DNA of 64,000 bases from a virus (lineage: Duplodnaviria > Caudoviricetes). The stretch lies in IMG/VR virus record IMGVR_UViG_3300032281_000616, positions 96,001 to 160,000 of that record. One strand, written 5' to 3'. Of the stretch, positions 1,652 to 55,472 are shown piece by piece; positions within the stretch are counted from its first letter, which is position 1; each line of letters begins with the position of its first letter. Position numbers and translations under genes: made by a program. The notes beneath the pieces are model-generated. The model was not told the DNA's origin. It ran no database searches and was given only the letters and a program-made list of their open reading frames with translations.

Positions 1652-2791
1652 ATGTCAGAATTGTGTAATGTTCAACCAATATCAGCCTTTATGAGCACAA
1701 ATCTATCGTCTAAGATAGAGTGTTTTCAAGCTTTGGGTGCTAGAATTTTGAGAATGTTGGGTCATCCAATGATCAATGTTGAACTTCACCCTGACCAATT
1801 ATACGATTCTATTAGCATGGCTTGTGAATTTTATACACAATATGCTGGGTATACAAAGGAGTATTTGATATTTGATAGCAATCTATATGATAAAAATAAA
1901 GGTCTTAGATTGGACCATCTTTTCACAGTCGCTAATACAGGATTTACTTTATCAGAAAAATTAAATGAGGTCAAAAAATCCAATCCAGATTATAATGTTA
2001 CCTTAAGAGAAAATTTATACATTCTCACATCAGCCATACCCAGTTCATATTTCGTGTCAAGTTCTACCTTAAGTTCTTCTATCCCATCTGATGGTTTACC
2101 AGCAATGCAGGTAATGGAGGAATCTACATATTCACAATTGACAGCATTTAATTCATCTTTAAGTTCATTATTCATTGTATCACCAAAAAAACCTTTCACG
2201 GTTCAATGTGAAGAAGTTGAAAATGTTGTAAAATATAACAACATGTTTGATTACGATGTTATGGATTATCGAAAAGTCATTGATGTAATTGATTTCGTGG
2301 AAGGAAGCTCTAGTGGTGTCAATACATTGTTTTCTATGGAACAAACAATGGCACAACAAACATACTATTCTTACGCTATGGGTAATTTCGGATTTGATTT
2401 ATTATCATGGCATACTGTAAAAGACTGGCAAGATACTAGAGAAAAACTCTTAGCTATAAAAAGAGATATACATTTCGATCCAAGAACACAATACTTGAGA
2501 CTTATGCCACAACCAAAATCAAATAGATTTTATGGAGTCTTGGAATGTTATGTTGAACGCCCACTGAAAGATATTGTAAAAGAAAAATGGGTTCTCGATT
2601 ATGCCACAGCATTGTCTAAAATTATGTGGGGTCGTATACTAACACACATAACAGGGGTGACTTTATTGGGTGGTGGGACTTTAAATGGTGAATCTGTTTT
2701 ACAAGAAGGTGTTTCTGAAAAACAAGCATTGGAAGAATTTCTCATTGAGGGTGGTCACACTAGCGCACCTCCGATGATGTTTGTTGGATAA
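1652..2791 (+). CDS. gp13: Neck protein (T4 gp13-like)
   Basis: LGHPMINVELHPDQLYDSI...EFY, WVLDYATALSKIMWGRIL, GVTLLGGGTLNG motifs; late promoter at 1641-1646. Confidence 0.85.
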   Translation: MSELCNVQPISAFMSTNLSSKIECFQALGARILRMLGHPMINVELHPDQLYDSISMACEFYTQYAGYTKEYLIFDSNLYDKNKGLRLDHLFTVANTGFTLSEKLNEVKKSNPDYNVTLRENLYILTSAIPSSYFVSSSTLSSSIPSDGLPAMQVMEESTYSQLTAFNSSLSSLFIVSPKKPFTVQCEEVENVVKYNNMFDYDVMDYRKVIDVIDFVEGSSSGVNTLFSMEQTMAQQTYYSYAMGNFGFDLLSWHTVKDWQDTREKLLAIKRDIHFDPRTQYLRLMPQPKSNRFYGVLECYVERPLKDIVKEKWVLDYATALSKIMWGRILTHITGVTLLGGGTLNGESVLQEGVSEKQALEEFLIEGGHTSAPPMMFVG

Positions 2792-10279: not shown

Positions 10280-11851
10280 ATGACAGATATCGACATCAAA
10301 GACAAACTTCTAAAAGTATCCAAGGAACAATACAAAGGATCTCTAAGATTTTTTAAACCAAAGCTTACTGAATTAATCATCGGTAAGGAAGCTCTGGATC
10401 ATATCAAAAAAAGAATAGACACTAAACTACAAAAATCACACACATTAATGCTGTATTGTTATCTGAATGATATTTATGAAACACCTAAATGTGTCTGTGG
10501 ATTTGATACAAAATTTAATACTACCACGAAGGAGTTTATGAAGTATTGTAGTAATAAATGTAGATTTGATAATTTCTCTGAGGTGGTGGAAGTCAGAAAG
10601 CAATCAAACTTAGAAAAATATGGAACAAGTAATTATCTTGCTAGTGAAGAGGGTAAGAGAAAAATAAAAGATTCTAATATTGAAAAATATGGTGTATCAA
10701 ACTACACACAGACTGATGAATATAAAGAGAGTGTTAGAGGGAAAAAGAATTCTCCTGAACAAATCCTTAAAACAAAAGAGGCGCATCTAAAAAGATCATA
10801 TACCAATCTTATTAAAAAATTTACCCACTGTAAACCTCTTTTCTCATTAGAAGAATTCGGTGGAGTGAGAGGATATAAACAATATCCTTGGTCATGTAAT
10901 AAATGTAAATCTAGTTTTATATCCTCATGTGATAATGGAAGTTCTCCTATATGTAATTATTGCGAACCTACAGGATCTAAACATGAAGTTGTTTGTAAAG
11001 AATTGCTAGAATCATTAGAGGTGGATTACAAATATCGATACAGAAAGCTACCATCTGGTAAAGAAATAGATCTATTTGTTCCAGATAAAATGTTTGGAAT
11101 AGAACTATGTGGGTTATATTGGCACTCTACCGCTGGTCCTAGTTACGCAAAACCAAATCATGTTAATAAACTAAACGAATGCGAAGAGAATGGAATAAAA
11201 TTATTTACAATATTTGATGATGAAATGTATAATCCAGTAAAGAAACGAATAGTTTTAAATAAAATTAAAAATTCAGTTGGACAAAACAAGAGAAAAATAC
11301 ACGCCAGAAAATGTAAAATAATTGAATTGGATTCGAATATATGTAGTAAATTTTTGGAAAAATATCACATTCAAGGTGCTATAGGTTCCTCTTATAAATA
11401 CGGTTTAACATATAAAAATAGGCTCGTTGCAGTAATGACATTTAATAAAGGAAGAACTTCAACTGGACACAAACCCGTAGAGGGGGAATGGGAACTTGGT
11501 AGATATTGTACGATCTTTAATTTTAATGTAGTTGGTGGTGCGAGTAAATTATTAGCTCATTTTATAAAAAATATAAACCCCACTAAAATCTATTCATATG
11601 CTGATCGAAGATGGAGTAATGGTGATATGTATAATAAAATAGGCTTCACTTTTGTTAAAAATACTACACCAAACTATTGGTATACTAAAACGTTCAAAAC
11701 TAGAGAACACAGAGTCAAATTTCAAAAGCATAAGCTAGTTGATATGCCTTCTTACGATGAGTCTCTGACAGAAGAAGAAATAATGAAAAGAGAAAAATAT
11801 TTTAAGATTTGGGATTGTGGGTCAAAACTTTATGAGTGGACTAAATTTTAA
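10280..11851 (+). mobile_element. Free-standing Hef-like homing endonuclease
   Basis: N-terminal Zn/KYG repeats (CSNKC, LEKYG, IEKYG), nuclease core EIDLFVPDKMFGIELCGLYWHS, C-terminal HIQG...LVAVMTF...GGASKLL...SYADRRWSNG...IWDCG domain. Confidence 0.8.
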
Positions 11852-23108: not shown

Positions 23109-23179
23109 TGGAATATCGTCTAATGGTAAGACAACGCTTTCATACGGCGAGAACGACAATTCGATTTTGTCTATTCCTA
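23109..23179 (+). tRNA. tRNA-Met/Ile2 (CAT)
   Basis: TGGAATA/TATTCCT acceptor; GTC-TAATGGTAA-GAC D arm; loop TTCATAC; T arm GACAA/TTGTC. Confidence 0.65.
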
Positions 23180-23590: not shown

Positions 23591-23662
23591 TCCCATGTAG
23601 CACAACAGCAGTGCGTTCGACTGTTAATCGAAAGGTTGTAGGGGCAGAACCTACCTTGGGAG
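23591..23662 (+). tRNA. tRNA-Asn (GTT)
   Basis: TCCCATG/CTTGGGA-G; TTCGA-CTGTTAA-TCGAA; atypical T loop GGCAGAA. Confidence 0.8.
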
Positions 23663-34088: not shown

Positions 34089-34883
34089 TTGACACATCTC
34101 AAAAATATAAATAACTATATGACAAAATTTCAAGAATTTTATGAAAAGTTTTCTAGGGGAGAATTATCACCAATAAATAAAAGAAGAAAATTATTAATCG
34201 AATCTCAGTATGTATATCCATCATCTGGAGATAAAGCCATTATGGATCTATACGCTTTATATGCTTTGTGGTGGGAACTTGGGGGTGGTAAAACAGCATA
34301 CGATCAAGCCGAAACTAATATAAGACCACATAAAGTTCGGGAGAGAATCAATAGATATTTTGAGGAAGCTCTGGCAGTAATTTCTAATGTTCTTCTGGAC
34401 GAAACCAAAGACGCAATTGCAGATGAAGCAGAAAACATATTCGATGAATATTTGATACCATCTACTGAAGTTGTTAAATGGTTCAAGAGTAATGCACTTC
34501 TTCCGAAATTAGCTAAAGCTTATAATGATGGATCTGGAGATGTATGGTTTAATGTATTTGATTATGGAGAAACCATACATATTTTATCTGCACCATTTTG
34601 GGAAGAATATGCTGATTTGTATGGGGGTAAGAAATGGAGTGTTATAACCCAAGTCACCAAGGAGTTAGATAATGCGATTAGAAGGGATAATACCCTAGCG
34701 TTAATGCATACCTTCGACAAATTCATGGATCTCGAACACAATACAGGTTCTCTTTATTCTAAATTGAAAAGAATGAAAGTGTCTAAGGAAACTCTGGATT
34801 TAAGAGCGGGATTCAGATCTCCTAAAGATTTCACACCTTATGTTAGTGATCGAGTAAAAAAACTAATAGGGTTAATGAGATGA
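34089..34883 (+). CDS. Hypothetical protein
   Basis: Long ORF downstream of a TTGACT...AAAAACTA-GGA-TATATT promoter-like site; start uncertain. Confidence 0.7.
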   Translation: MTHLKNINNYMTKFQEFYEKFSRGELSPINKRRKLLIESQYVYPSSGDKAIMDLYALYALWWELGGGKTAYDQAETNIRPHKVRERINRYFEEALAVISNVLLDETKDAIADEAENIFDEYLIPSTEVVKWFKSNALLPKLAKAYNDGSGDVWFNVFDYGETIHILSAPFWEEYADLYGGKKWSVITQVTKELDNAIRRDNTLALMHTFDKFMDLEHNTGSLYSKLKRMKVSKETLDLRAGFRSPKDFTPYVSDRVKKLIGLMR

Positions 34884-36367
34884 TTGGAAGGAATCATTTG
34901 TTTAGCCTTCTTGAGAACATCCTGCTCTGAGATTTCTCTACCACTTAATAACATCTCAGCCACCCAATCTTGTAATTTGGGTAAATACATACCGATCTGT
35001 TTGGGGTTTGTTTTGAATTGTGGAAACCATTGCATCATTTTATTACCATTAGCATACTGAGCTATTTGTTTTTTCAGAGCATCAGCACCTCCCGGAACTG
35101 TGTTTAGTTTAGCTTCTGCTCTCTCAATCTTATCCATAAACTCTTGTTTATCAAATAGACCGGGACCACGAGAAGCTTCATCACAATATGCCACAGCCTT
35201 AACAGTCTCCCATGAAGGATCATGAATCAATTTTCTGAGAGTCTTTATATTGAGTGTATCTAGATTATGAACCATCATATGTTTAGCTACAGCATCAAGA
35301 ATGTTCTTTTTATCATTCGGTCCTAGTTTAGCGAATCTCATTCTTTTGAAGATTCCCTCAACAATAGGAACACCAGCAGCTTCATGACCATAATATGTAG
35401 AATGTCCATTCTTTTCACCTCTAGTTGTAGCTTTTCCAAAGTCGTGGAAAAGAACAGCTAAGTTAATCACAGGATCACTATAAGGTGAAACTTTTAAGCA
35501 TTCGTGAATGTGACCAAGAACTTTACTCTCCCCTTCTGGATGATATTTCGGATTATGCATCATTCCATCCATCGCATGAAACTCTGGAAGAATATCTTGT
35601 AATATTCCAGCTTCAGTAAGCTTACTTAAAAAGTTTGATAGAGTTCTTCCTGATTTGGCTGCTTTAAACATTTCTTGAGAAATACTCTCCATAGAAATCA
35701 GAGAAGAATCTTGTAACAAGTGCTTCAATTCTTTAGCAGCTTGTAGAGTCTCTGGCTCAATATCAAAGTCCATCTTAGCTGCGAATCTGAAGACACGAAG
35801 CAAACGGGTAGCATCCTCCTTAAACCTCTCTCTAGGATTACCAACTGCACGAATTAATTTATTCTGAAGATCCTGTAAACCACCCTGATAATCTACAATC
35901 CTACCACGATGATCAAGACCAAAACTATTGATAGTAATATCCCTACGTTTGGTATCCGTTTCAAAACTATCAACCTCTACAGAAACATTACTCTGTCTTC
36001 CCATTTCAGTTTGAGAATCTTCCCTAAATTTAGCTAAGTCATAAGCATAGTTGTTATATAGGATAGTATAAACTGGTTGAGAATCATTCTTTGATATATT
36101 ACGCAACTCAAAATGTTGAGACAAATCCTCGAAGGGGATATTAGTTGCCATATCAACATCATCGATCTCGTTACCCATAATAAGGTCACGAGGAACACCA
36201 CCAACAATATAAATCTCTCCAGAAGGAAACAGATCAACAATCTTGTTCATCAGATTCAAGGCTACTCGGAGTTCTTCAGAAGATGAGATAGCCTTATTCC
36301 ATTTCTCTGAAAAGTCATCTAGATTATTATTGACTGATTCGAAGAAGAATTTTTTGAATGGGATCAT
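34838..36367 (-). CDS. cca: tRNA nucleotidyltransferase (class II CCA-adding/poly(A)-type) with HD domain
   Basis: YIVGGVPRDLIMG...DDVDMAT, DTKRRDITIN, RFKEDATRLLRVFRFA, LFHDFGK. Confidence 0.88.
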   Translation of the reverse strand: MIPFKKFFFESVNNNLDDFSEKWNKAISSSEELRVALNLMNKIVDLFPSGEIYIVGGVPRDLIMGNEIDDVDMATNIPFEDLSQHFELRNISKNDSQPVYTILYNNYAYDLAKFREDSQTEMGRQSNVSVEVDSFETDTKRRDITINSFGLDHRGRIVDYQGGLQDLQNKLIRAVGNPRERFKEDATRLLRVFRFAAKMDFDIEPETLQAAKELKHLLQDSSLISMESISQEMFKAAKSGRTLSNFLSKLTEAGILQDILPEFHAMDGMMHNPKYHPEGESKVLGHIHECLKVSPYSDPVINLAVLFHDFGKATTRGEKNGHSTYYGHEAAGVPIVEGIFKRMRFAKLGPNDKKNILDAVAKHMMVHNLDTLNIKTLRKLIHDPSWETVKAVAYCDEASRGPGLFDKQEFMDKIERAEAKLNTVPGGADALKKQIAQYANGNKMMQWFPQFKTNPKQIGMYLPKLQDWVAEMLLSGREISEQDVLKKAKQMIPSNHLINPISFFTRSLT

Positions 36368-53235: not shown

Positions 53236-53310
53236 TGAGAGAGACAGGATTCGAACCTGCATCGATCCATTACGGTACTACGGAGTAGAATTCCGTTCCG
53301 ATACACTCCC
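53236..53310 (-). tRNA. Pseudo-tRNA lacking the D arm (TCT in the loop)
   Basis: GGGAGTG/CTCTCTC; ACGGA-ATTCTAC-TCCGT; long variable region; GCAGG-TTCGAAT-CCTGT. Confidence 0.45.
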
Positions 53311-53751: not shown

Positions 53752-53827
53752 TGGTCCTCCTAACCAGATTCGAACTGGTAACTAACGGTTTATGAAACCG
53801 CTACTCTGACCGTTGAGTTATAGGAGG
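53752..53827 (-). tRNA. tRNA-Ile2 (CAT), putative lysidine substrate
   Basis: CCTCCTA/TAGGAGG-A-CCA; GCGGT-TTCATAA-ACCGT; lies directly downstream of tilS. Confidence 0.82.
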
Positions 53828-53832
53828 ATATA

Positions 53833-54444
53833 TTACAAATAAAATTTCTTTAATACGACTTTCTCCAACCCTCTTCGTTCTTCGATTTTAGGAAGGATTT
53901 CATTTCTAATCCAGTTTCTTTCATATTTACTATCTGAATTGGTTTCATCAACTACTACATATCCAGATAATCCTCTTTTATCAACCCAATCCTCTAAATT
54001 AGATTTACTGTTTTTAATAAAAGGTCGCAGCAAAGTAAAATTATCAAACTCACTAATTTGTTGAATCGGTTTATATTCTGGACAACCTTTTAGACAATTC
54101 ATAATATACTGTTCAACACAATCACCTAGATGATGACAGACTATAATTGATTCACCAATCTCATCGAAGAAACTTAATCTCTCTTGTCTCAAATTATCTT
54201 CAATGTTCTTAGTGTATTTTACGCGACATTCACCAATTGTCAAATGAATTTTGTAGTCATCACAAAACTTTCGACAAACATCAACCATCTTTAGATTCTG
54301 TTCTCTTTGATTATGATTGAAGTGGATAGCTTTGAAATTATAACCTAATGTTAAAAGAAGATGAGAGCATGCTAAACTATCAACTCCACCAGAGATAGCA
54401 ACCGAAAATTGCTCAGGAATGATTTTTCTATTGATATGAATCAT
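53833..54444 (-). CDS. tilS: tRNA(Ile)-lysidine synthetase
   Basis: VAISGGVDS PP-loop, HFNH, HHLGD..E, LLRPF, VDETN....YERNWIR; true start MIHINRK (the ORF-track extension lies in the tRNA duplicate). Confidence 0.88.
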   Translation of the reverse strand: MIHINRKIIPEQFSVAISGGVDSLACSHLLLTLGYNFKAIHFNHNQREQNLKMVDVCRKFCDDYKIHLTIGECRVKYTKNIEDNLRQERLSFFDEIGESIIVCHHLGDCVEQYIMNCLKGCPEYKPIQQISEFDNFTLLRPFIKNSKSNLEDWVDKRGLSGYVVVDETNSDSKYERNWIRNEILPKIEERRGLEKVVLKKFYL

Positions 54445-54459
54445 TATTGTATGAGATAG

Positions 54460-55193
54460 CCGCACCCGGACTCGAAAATACACTTTTAGACTAAATAGTA
54501 TTATGAAGATGCTTAATTGTGATAGGTGTAATGAAGAATTCGAAGTTTCATATGACCAATGGAAGAATCGGAGGAGTAAAAAGAAAATCCATAATAGGAA
54601 TAATTATTGTTCGCTGGAATGCAGATTATTGGGACAAGGAAAAAGCCCAAGAATAGAAGTTTCGTGTGAAAGTTGTGGTTGTTTTTTTATGAAACATTAT
54701 AGCGAGGTTACGAGAACCCCTAAAAATTTTTGTTCTAGATCTTGCTCTGCTACATATAACAACACTCACAAAACAAAGGGTAATCGCAGAAGTAAGTTAG
54801 AAAAATGGTTAGAAGAACAATTAACTGTGTTATATCTAGAACTAGAAATTCTATATTCGAACAAAACCACCATTAATTCTGAGCTTGATATTTATATACC
54901 ATCCCTAAAATTAGCCTTTGAACTTAATGGAATATTCCATTATGAACCAATATATGGTGAAGATAAGCTAAATCAAATCCAAAACAATGATAATAGAAAA
55001 TTTCAGGCTTGTTTAGAGAAAGGTATCGAATTATGTATTATCGATACTTCTCAACACAAATACGTTAAGCCTTCTACTTCACAAAAATATCTTGATATTA
55101 TCACACATTTAGTTAACTCTAAATTAGAGTCATCCAAAACAGACTACGTGGAAGTAGTGTGATTTCCTGTTTCTGACCGCACCCGGACTCGAA
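54460..55193. repeat. 17-bp direct repeat of the tRNA-Leu 3' end flanking an endonuclease gene
   Basis: CCGCACCCGGACTCGAA at 54460-54476 and 55177-55193. Confidence 0.88.
54503..55162 (+). mobile_element. Zn-finger plus PD-(D/E)xK-like putative homing endonuclease
   Basis: CxxC...YCSLEC, CxxC...FCSRSC, ELDIYIPSLKLAFELNGIFHY; own late promoter at 54492. Confidence 0.78.
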
Positions 55194-55292
55194 CCGGGAA
55201 GCCTTTCGGCGGCAGATTTTCGACAAGGTATAATATATTTCACTTATACCCTATTAGAAAGTCTGCGATGTTTACCTTTTCATCATACGGCC
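55174..55292 (-). tRNA. tRNA-Leu (TAA) with a 38-nt insertion in the anticodon
   Basis: GGCCGTA/TGCGGTC-A; GCAGA-CTT[38 nt]AAAA-TCTGC; variable arm GCCGAAAGGC; CCCGG-TTCGAGT-CCGGG. Confidence 0.8.
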
Positions 55293-55304
55293 ATTGATTT
55301 TTAG

Positions 55305-55472
55305 TTATCCTACATATTCTTCAGTGTCAATATCAATCAATTCATTGTCGTAAACTGATCCATCCTCTTCATTGAATACACATTCCATATCCATGATCTT
55401 ATCATTGAGATCATCTTCATCTTCAGCATTGATAAAGACATTAAATTTCATTGTTACGATGTATTGCTTCAT
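55305..55472 (-). CDS. Micro-ORF (55 aa, very acidic)
   Basis: Motif promoter with N6-ATG; MKQYIVTMKFNVFINAEDEDDL... Confidence 0.65.
   Translation of the reverse strand: MKQYIVTMKFNVFINAEDEDDLNDKIMDMECVFNEEDGSVYDNELIDIDTEEYVG

Follow-up and report, generated by a model that had tools for sequence, protein, structure and literature searches.

According to the textbook view, introns in the tRNA genes of bacteria and their phages are self-splicing group I (rarely group II) introns, while protein-catalysed tRNA splicing belongs to archaea and eukaryotes. Here we describe a 38-nucleotide (nt) insert in the anticodon of a tRNA-Leu(UAA) gene of a T4-like phage (hereafter G000), located in a 64,000-nt stretch of DNA (positions 96,001 to 160,000 of the IMG/VR record IMGVR_UViG_3300032281_000616). 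This whole stretch is called the window, and coordinates without a prefix refer to it. The insert is one of a set of conserved, structurally constrained inserts of 30-39 nt which fit neither self-splicing nor archaeal or eukaryal protein splicing; it sits in the middle of the anticodon of the only tRNA for the most-used leucine codon of the phage, and many other phage contigs have its like, in tRNAs of two anticodon families. The observation itself is confirmed, far beyond chance.

Introns of phage tRNAs have been reported from the Lak megaphages (540-kb genomes, Prevotella hosts, an alternative genetic code), whose tRNAs carry 'enigmatic' introns that are invariant between strains and work by no mechanism yet known (Devoto et al. 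2019, Nat Microbiol, PMC6784885). Introns in phage tRNAs had not, to those authors' knowledge, been described before; at least one of the Lak introns may itself encode a tRNA, and the insert of the Lak tRNA-Tyr, as given in Table S6 of that paper, is 93 nt long with a T-arm-like stretch (PMC6784885). Shared with our locus are a non-self-splicing insert in the anticodon region of a phage tRNA, exons that make a normal tRNA, and invariance across diverged strains. The locus described here differs in that the insert is not tRNA-like, measures 30-39 nt throughout its family, and occurs in tRNA(UAA) and tRNA(CAU) of T4-like phages of about 200 kb; it presents the same kind of problem in another guise, as a simple hairpin that always lies at 34/35, whatever the tRNA species. 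No earlier description of this type of hairpin insert was found in the literature.

The group I intron of cyanobacterial and plastid tRNA-Leu(UAA) interrupts the same tRNA species at the identical U34/A35 site and, like it, the present copy ends in G; however, that intron exceeds 200 nt, whereas the insert has 38 nt, no P3-P9 core, no Rfam match and a terminal G that is not conserved. The bulge-helix-bulge (BHB) introns of archaea and eukaryotes, processed by EndA or TSEN together with RtcB or Trl1, resemble it in size range, hairpin, anticodon-loop location and the need for a nuclease and a ligase, but here there is no BHB, the site is 34/35 rather than 37/38, no EndA or RtcB homologue is encoded and the host is bacterial. 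Yeast Trl1 is related to the T4 repair enzymes Pnkp and Rnl1, which this phage resembles in part. The phage genome encodes a polynucleotide-kinase-like protein and a member of the gp63/Rnl1 ligase family, and excision would leave the anticodon loop nicked, the natural substrate of Rnl1. In the T4 case the break is inflicted by the host PrrC at 33/34 of tRNA-Lys and no intron is removed; the present system further differs in that no phosphatase module was found and in that the repair genes also occur in intron-less relatives.

When allowed to place introns, ARAGORN recognised tRNA-Leu(taa) at c[55173,55293] and put a 38-nt intron between positions 34 and 35 of the loop (Table 1). The Rfam tRNA model RF00005 covered 55174-55292(-) end to end (model positions 1-71, 34.2 bits against a cut-off of 29, with permissive filters), the surplus bases being placed in its alignment as an insert within the anticodon loop. 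Both programs thus bore out the original prediction, made from the sequence alone, of a 38-nt mini-intron-like insert at U34/A35 of a complete class II tRNA-Leu. The gene was skipped by default ARAGORN and by Rfam gathering mode; standard bacterial annotation settings overlook such tRNAs. The exons provide a 7-bp acceptor stem, a 3-bp D stem with G18 and G19, the anticodon stem GCAGA/UCUGC, a long variable arm, a canonical T arm and a discriminator A, with CCA not encoded. When 55258..55221 is removed, a canonical 7-nt loop C-U-U-A-A-A-A with U33 and A37 is left. Shifting the excision register by -1 would give the anticodon GAA, as had been foreseen for a one-nt shift, and shifting it by +1 would give UUA. 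The expected junction of the spliced tRNA-Leu body is ...GCAGACUU joined to AAAAUCUGCC..., and the unspliced form has 119 nt. As intron-less homologues (G006, G017 and G015) read ...ACTTAAAAT... across this point, comparison with them fixes the junction at 34/35.

Table 1. Coordinates of the interrupted tRNA-Leu gene, its parts and other features discussed.
Feature	Coordinates	Strand	Evidence or remarks
tRNA-Leu(UAA) with insert, complete, class II	55292..55174	minus	ARAGORN intron mode, RF00005, minimum free energy fold
5' exon: acceptor 5' strand, D arm, anticodon stem 5' strand, C32 U33 U34	55259..55292	minus	sequence, ARAGORN
38-nt mini-intron (putative) between U34 and A35	55258..55221	minus	folds, compensatory changes against G020, insert unchanged in contigs from two further runs
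3' exon: A35-A38, anticodon stem 3' strand, variable arm, T arm, acceptor 3' strand, A73	55174..55220	minus	sequence, ARAGORN, RF00005
Free-standing homing-endonuclease-like gene, 219 aa	54503..55162	plus	PHROG 559/3339/9084, E down to 1e-14
17-nt exact copy of tRNA-Leu T-loop/acceptor 3' end	54460..54476	minus	partner 55177-55193; blastn-short
TilS-like PP-loop protein (tRNA-Ile lysidine synthetase family)	53833..54444	minus	PF01171, E 1e-34
Uninterrupted tRNA(CAU)	53752..53827	minus	ARAGORN
CCA-adding enzyme	34838-36367	minus	PHROG 2244
Rnl1/gp63-like ligase, 359 aa	G000:173413-174492		PHROG 562 'RNA ligase and tail fiber protein attachment catalyst', 4e-31

The whole precursor was predicted to fold with a minimum free energy (MFE) of -45.6 kcal/mol (z = -5.0) and to keep its cloverleaf, and the anticodon arm alone reached z = -6.2, with none of 200 shuffled sequences folding as well. 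In the MFE fold the anticodon loop and the insert (nucleotides i1-i38, numbered 5' to 3') make a single continuous rod, in which the anticodon stem is followed by a C32/A38 mismatch, a 4-bp helix, a 2x1 internal loop, an 11-bp stem and a 10-nt loop. The 4-bp helix is formed by U33-A37, U34-A36, i1-A35 and i2-i38 and holds both junctions; the internal loop consists of i3 and i4 opposite i37, and the stem of i5-i15 (55254-55244) paired with i26-i36 (55233-55223) around the loop at 55243-55234, so that the 9-bp hairpin of the original prediction is real and extends to 11 bp. Because insert and anticodon-loop bases form one rod, only a single base pair separates the two junctions at the hairpin foot, with the two scissile bonds on opposite strands flanking the i1-A35 pair. 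No BHB was formed, both the MFE and the centroid fold placing the two junctions within one helix, and when a BHB register was forced by hand only two of the four central pairs could be made and the anticodon stem had to melt. The folds therefore agree with the earlier claim that there is no clean BHB; two related points, that an insert of this length is much too short for self-splicing and that it cannot be classed as a BHB intron, were borne out as well. A T-loop motif was absent from the insert, a plain hairpin with its 10-nt loop.

Relatives of G000 were sought through the capsid protein, which gave 238 related IMG/VR contigs, and eleven of the larger ones were assembled and scanned. Inserts at 34/35 were found in a class I tRNA(UAA) of G005 (39 nt), in a class I tRNA(UAA) and an Ile2-like tRNA(CAU) of G003 (35 nt each), and in two genes of G020, a class II Leu-like one (38 nt) and a tRNA(CAU) with a body unlike that of G003 (35 nt), while the tRNA(UAA) genes of G006, G013, G015 and G017 are intron-less. 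The Leu-like gene of G020 was not called by ARAGORN because its T loop has 6 nt. Scanning metagenomes with the pattern GACTT, 30-42 nt, AAAATC and then a T arm added at least nine further distinct class II tRNA-Leu(UAA) genes with inserts of 30-39 nt at the same junction; the contigs that carry them have 36-59% G+C and mostly ORFan neighbours, and six share proteins with this phage group. In all, at least 15 tRNA genes other than the present one, on contigs of related T4-like phages, have an insert of 30-39 nt at 34/35. On a metagenome contig with a mini-intron tRNA-Leu (L426, 5.7 kb), another tRNA, at 2197-2314(-), also has its anticodon loop interrupted, by about 40 nt; depending on the splice register it would read UAU or CAU.

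A comparable pattern, applied to one genome for each of the 185,579 prokaryote species of GTDB, yielded no convincing tRNA with such an insert: its 48 matches were essentially all chance occurrences in coding DNA or intron-less tRNAs, in addition to one doubtful, degenerate Opitutia sequence. On present evidence the insert family appears to be viral, and the best reading of these comparisons is a family of 30-39-nt hairpin mini-introns at 34/35 of tRNA(UAA) and tRNA(CAU) in freshwater and marine T4-like phages. Other anchors gave less: TilS led to one distant locus only, exact-pattern scans of IMG/VR (with the T arm, or with the intron/3' exon junction) found nothing beyond G020, and 80 helicase-anchored and 74 class I D-arm loci held no mini-introns beyond those of G003 and G005. 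The remaining ARAGORN intron calls at those loci looked spurious, except for a 215-nt insert ending in G that splits a tRNA(CAU) at 33/34 (L307:581-871(+), also in L273 and L311, all from IMG/VR) and looks like a true group I intron. The 74 class I loci (IMG/VR contigs L254-L327) represent a widespread tRNA family with a short variable arm and the common D arm TAGCCGAATTGGTATAGGCA, whose anticodons include the leucine-type UAA, UAG and CAA as well as others.

A single hairpin continuing the anticodon stem was predicted in 14 of 15 inserts (z from -2.4 to -5.8 against shuffled inserts), the exception being the GC-rich insert of L337, which forms two small hairpins. Two clear pairs of homologues, of equal length and aligned without gaps, could be compared: the Leu inserts of G000 and G020 and the CAU inserts of G020 and G003. 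About 43% of stem bases differ within each pair. The Leu pair shows five double compensatory changes, one single compatible change and two broken pairs, the CAU pair four, two and none, respectively, and 0 of 5000 shuffles of the 3' partners paired as well. In both homologue pairs i2 and the last base switch jointly from C-G to U-A; the last insert base is G in G000, G005 and the CAU insert of G020, and A in the Leu insert of G020 and in both inserts of G003 (CAU and UAA). Since the last base covaries with i2, the terminal G is half of a base pair and not an omega-G, and of the weight formerly placed on it there stands only that this copy ends in G, as the last base is not conserved in relatives. 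G-U pairs are present on the tRNA-sense strand, which argues for selection on RNA and not on DNA, and the RNA structure of the insert is, to judge from these substitutions, under selection. The same insert with covariation in other phages, which the original prediction had proposed to look for, was thus found, and the lack of conservation that it had named as a refutation is contradicted by the relatives and by the strain contigs described below.

The insert of the G003 tRNA(UAA) resembles that of the G020 tRNA(CAU) (z 4.2, 0 of 500 shuffles), a likeness comparable to that of the two tRNA(CAU) inserts (z 4.5), and the tRNA(CAU) bodies of G003 and G020 are unrelated to each other. Insert similarity across tRNAs together with unrelated bodies indicates related inserts in at least four tRNA bodies, always at 34/35 and before A35, and the insert family is apparently mobile. 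Co-conversion of exon flanks between G000 and G020 was considered and dropped, the anticodon and variable arms being near-identical but the introns differing at half their positions. Further readings of the insert were rejected, as a promoter (its TATAAT-like hexamer is not conserved in homologues), as a terminator (no U tract follows the hairpin) and as a repeated element, since blastn-short of the pre-tRNA found no second copy in the 202-kb genome.

We interpret the 38 nt as a protein-dependent, cut-and-religate mini-intron of a working tRNA-Leu(UAA) gene, a reading that we regard as evenly poised. In the precursor, the rod of insert and anticodon-loop bases would present both junctions one base pair apart at the hairpin foot; a putative endonuclease would cut them both, and because the insert has no catalytic core we infer that this enzyme is a protein. 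An RNA ligase, for which the T4 gp63/Rnl1-like enzyme of the phage is the candidate, would rejoin the broken anticodon loop, and the P-loop kinase would take part if the ends need healing. More broadly, and with somewhat less confidence, mobile hairpin mini-introns at 34/35 in T4-like phages of bacteria may be removed by a putative protein endonuclease that recognises the hairpin foot on the tRNA body, with a phage Rnl1-type ligase closing the loop again. This would amount to protein-only tRNA splicing among bacteria and their phages, and it might also control when the key tRNAs of the phage become available, or safeguard them. If the insert is spliced, this would imply an undescribed nuclease activity and a new role for widely conserved phage RNA ligases. 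As a weaker addition, the insert may also protect the tRNA gene from homing endonucleases, as their frequency as neighbours suggests.

The ligase and kinase-like genes make the rejoining half of such a route available. The 359-aa ligase (Table 1) matches PF09414 weakly, a genome search with PF09511 giving no match; a second RNA ligase of 465 aa carries PF09414 and PF21189 with a PHA02142 OB domain, and a P-loop protein of 133 aa is similar to AAA_33 (29 bits) and to the polynucleotide kinase family PHROG 505 (2e-6), with no phosphatase domain found. A cluster outside the window (G000:C1:173413-176008) comprises the Rnl1/gp63-like ligase, a 240-aa open reading frame (ORF; P0006), a 143-aa ORF and the 133-aa P-loop kinase. 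Neither of the two ORFs could be placed in a family; of the genomes compared, G000 and G005 alone encode P0006, which has 23 close homologues and gave an AlphaFold model (pLDDT, the predicted local distance difference test score, 81) with no fold match in the PDB.

The complete phage genome gave no match to EndA (PF01974), RtcB (PF01139) or RNase III (PF00636), and to our knowledge bacteria generally lack EndA. The group I model RF00028 had no gathering-score match in the window and none at E<=10 on 55120-55340; over the whole genome its best match reached 13 bits (E 0.09) inside an ORF elsewhere, with no group I core, whole or split, and no Rfam ribozyme family was detected at the insert site. 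Of the ligase, endonuclease or split group I core that the original prediction had suggested searching for, RNA ligase genes were therefore found, but not EndA, RtcB, RNase III or a group I core. Its interpretation as a minimal intron stands as regards a real mini-intron-like insert and the presence of ligase genes, but not as regards a group I connection, which beyond the shared site is contradicted by the covariation of the last base with i2 and by the lack of a group I core in the genome. Two models of cleavage were discarded: RNase III requires a 2-nt 3' overhang that cannot give both junctions, and the phage is without RNase III; for minihelix processing by RNase P and RNase Z, the registers needed at the two ends differ from each other by 1-2 nt in a hairpin of this type.

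Several observations weigh against the proposed cut-and-religate route. The endonuclease step lacks a candidate, there being no BHB, EndA, RtcB or RNase III in the genome, and the geometry of the junctions, with cuts one base pair apart and 1-nt 5' overhangs, matches no nuclease known to us. The intron-less relatives G006 and G013 have the ligase and kinase genes too, so that the presence of these genes does not follow that of the intron. Ten genes are common to the intron-bearing genomes only, and Pfam revealed nothing telling among them, nor did PHROG for the subset searched; genes present in G000 and G005 and absent from G006 and G013 gave matches to NUDIX, dUTPase, GIY-YIG and Kyano_Gp96 or nothing. 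Some copies may be decaying, to judge by the 6-nt T loop of the Leu-like gene of G020. Finally, homing endonucleases of three families stand beside several intron-bearing tRNAs, which would fit a purely selfish or immunity role with tRNA function dispensable.

In G000 this neighbour is a gene for a 219-aa protein with two Cys-rich N-terminal motifs and a PD-(D/E)XK/DUF559-like C-terminus but no Pfam match; it is convergent with the tRNA-Leu gene and ends 12 nt from the 3' end of the tRNA. The two 17-nt copies bracket a 717-nt endonuclease cassette (54460-55176). In three DNA sequencing runs from two other studies (X2, X3 and X4; the second study is labelled freshwater), 54459 is joined to 55177 through the 17 shared letters, and since 54459 runs straight into 55177 these strains are without the cassette; in their contigs the tRNA would have ...GGCTA at its end in place of ...GGTCA, with pairing in the acceptor stem preserved. 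X3 and X4 show 0 differences over 55177-55307, which spans the tRNA and its insert, while their flanks differ at 44 of 860 positions on the TilS side and 54 of 493 on the upstream side (5-11%). The insert is therefore independent of the cassette and conserved like the exons, as X3 and X4 carry it unchanged without the cassette. Among relatives, only the last 25 codons of the endonuclease gene remain in G020, an HNH endonuclease occupies the equivalent place in G005 (5e-41), and intron-bearing tRNAs stand beside a relative of the G000 endonuclease at L410 and a SegE-like GIY-YIG enzyme at L421; a related seg-like gene adjoins the intron-less tRNA-Leu of G017. A 523-aa full-length member of the family of the 219-aa protein is encoded at 10280-11851(+), right after the major head gene.

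Chief among the rival explanations, though unlikely in our view, is that the insert is never removed, and that the product is a tRNA-shaped RNA with a helix-locked anticodon which serves as a decoy or sponge for a host tRNA-targeting enzyme or as a regulatory RNA, or else that the gene is silenced and linked to selfish elements; phages would then maintain tRNA-shaped RNAs with masked anticodons for another purpose. This would account for the lack of a splicing enzyme that can be named, for the burial of U33-A37 in base pairs of the rod and for the degenerate look of one family member, and 34/35 is also a junction at which several anticodon nucleases cut (colicin E5, zymocin gamma-toxin and RloC). 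However, at least 15 independent genes keep a full cloverleaf with an exact 34/35 placement that restores the canonical loop, and intact exons are not expected under loss of function; UUA is the commonest Leu codon, with no other tRNA to read it, and a decoy would not need an insert in two anticodon families. Another rival is descent from a group I intron, only the ends of which would remain, and which would be dead or else depend for its splicing on a ribozyme core provided in trans. The shared site in tRNA-Leu(UAA), the G at the end of this copy and the U before it recall such an intron, as do the related phage contigs with a 215-nt group-I-like intron in tRNA(CAU), but that intron lies at 33/34; RF00028 gives at most 13 bits anywhere in the genome and none at the site, several members end in A, the final base covarying with i2, and what is conserved is a plain hairpin rather than pairings of the P1/P10 type. 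This descent is largely refuted and we hold it to be very improbable.

Two further explanations place the role of the insert in DNA. In the one, which we think improbable though less so than a collapsed group I intron, the insert mainly confers immunity to homing endonucleases by breaking their recognition site and spreads by gene conversion together with the neighbouring nuclease ('collaborative homing'), any removal from RNA being secondary. Five intron-bearing tRNAs (those of G000, G020, G005, L410 and L421) do have an endonuclease gene, in G020 a remnant, no more than about 200 nt away, and T4-like phages offer precedents for an intervening sequence without an ORF beside a free-standing homing endonuclease: the psbA intron of cyanophage S-PM2 with F-CphI (PMC6083498; concept also in PMC2790892), and T4 mobE with I-TevIII. 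Those introns, however, interrupt protein genes and belong to the self-splicing group I class. The G000 cassette, with its 17-nt duplication, has left its footprint at the 3' end of the tRNA and not at the anticodon; cassette-less strains carry the identical insert, which persists unchanged without the nuclease; a seg-like gene of the same kind stands beside the intron-less tRNA-Leu of G017; and endonuclease genes are common in the tRNA clusters of T4-like phages anyway. The other, a miniature palindromic element resembling repetitive extragenic palindromes (REP) or miniature inverted-repeat transposable elements (MITE) that landed in tRNA genes by chance, would explain a short imperfect palindrome and the related copies in different tRNA genes. 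It is hardly credible and the least probable of all, given that the 202-kb genome has no other copy, that every copy stands exactly at 34/35 of a tRNA, a precision beyond the reach of a 3-4-nt DNA target, that the G-U pairs work only on the tRNA-sense RNA strand, and that neither copies outside tRNA genes nor a linked transposase were seen.

The record that contains the window is 202,205 bp long, has terminal repeats and was judged 100% complete. T4-like genes for a major head protein, helicases and ribonucleotide reductase are present, and no DNA-level match was found among deposited phages. According to ARAGORN, tRNA-Leu(UAA) is the sole intron-bearing tRNA of this genome; it is also the only tRNA of the phage for UUA and UUG, which account for 35% (the commonest) and 22% of Leu codons, and AUA makes up 32% of Ile codons. 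A CCA-adding enzyme is encoded in the window (Table 1). The TilS-like gene lies directly upstream of the uninterrupted tRNA(CAU), which is probably the substrate of its product and of tRNA-Ile2 type, and among the genomes compared TilS was seen only in this lineage; with regard to the intron, the TilS-like protein is taken as a neighbour only. The TilS, of bacterial type, and a tRNA-Tyr of class II mark the host as bacterial.

Other tRNA-like sequences were noted besides. A tRNA with the anticodon CUA, of amber-suppressor type, is present in G003, G005, G006 and G020 (for example G006:23941-24013), with none in G000. A tRNA-like gene at 53236-53310(-) scored 33 bits with Rfam and was called by ARAGORN only at a lowered threshold, its anticodon stem seeming to close a 9-nt loop. 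Two matches to the tRNA model at 23109-23179 and 23591-23662 (+) were skipped by default ARAGORN; one has the anticodon CAU and the other GUU, with an odd T loop, GGCAGAA.

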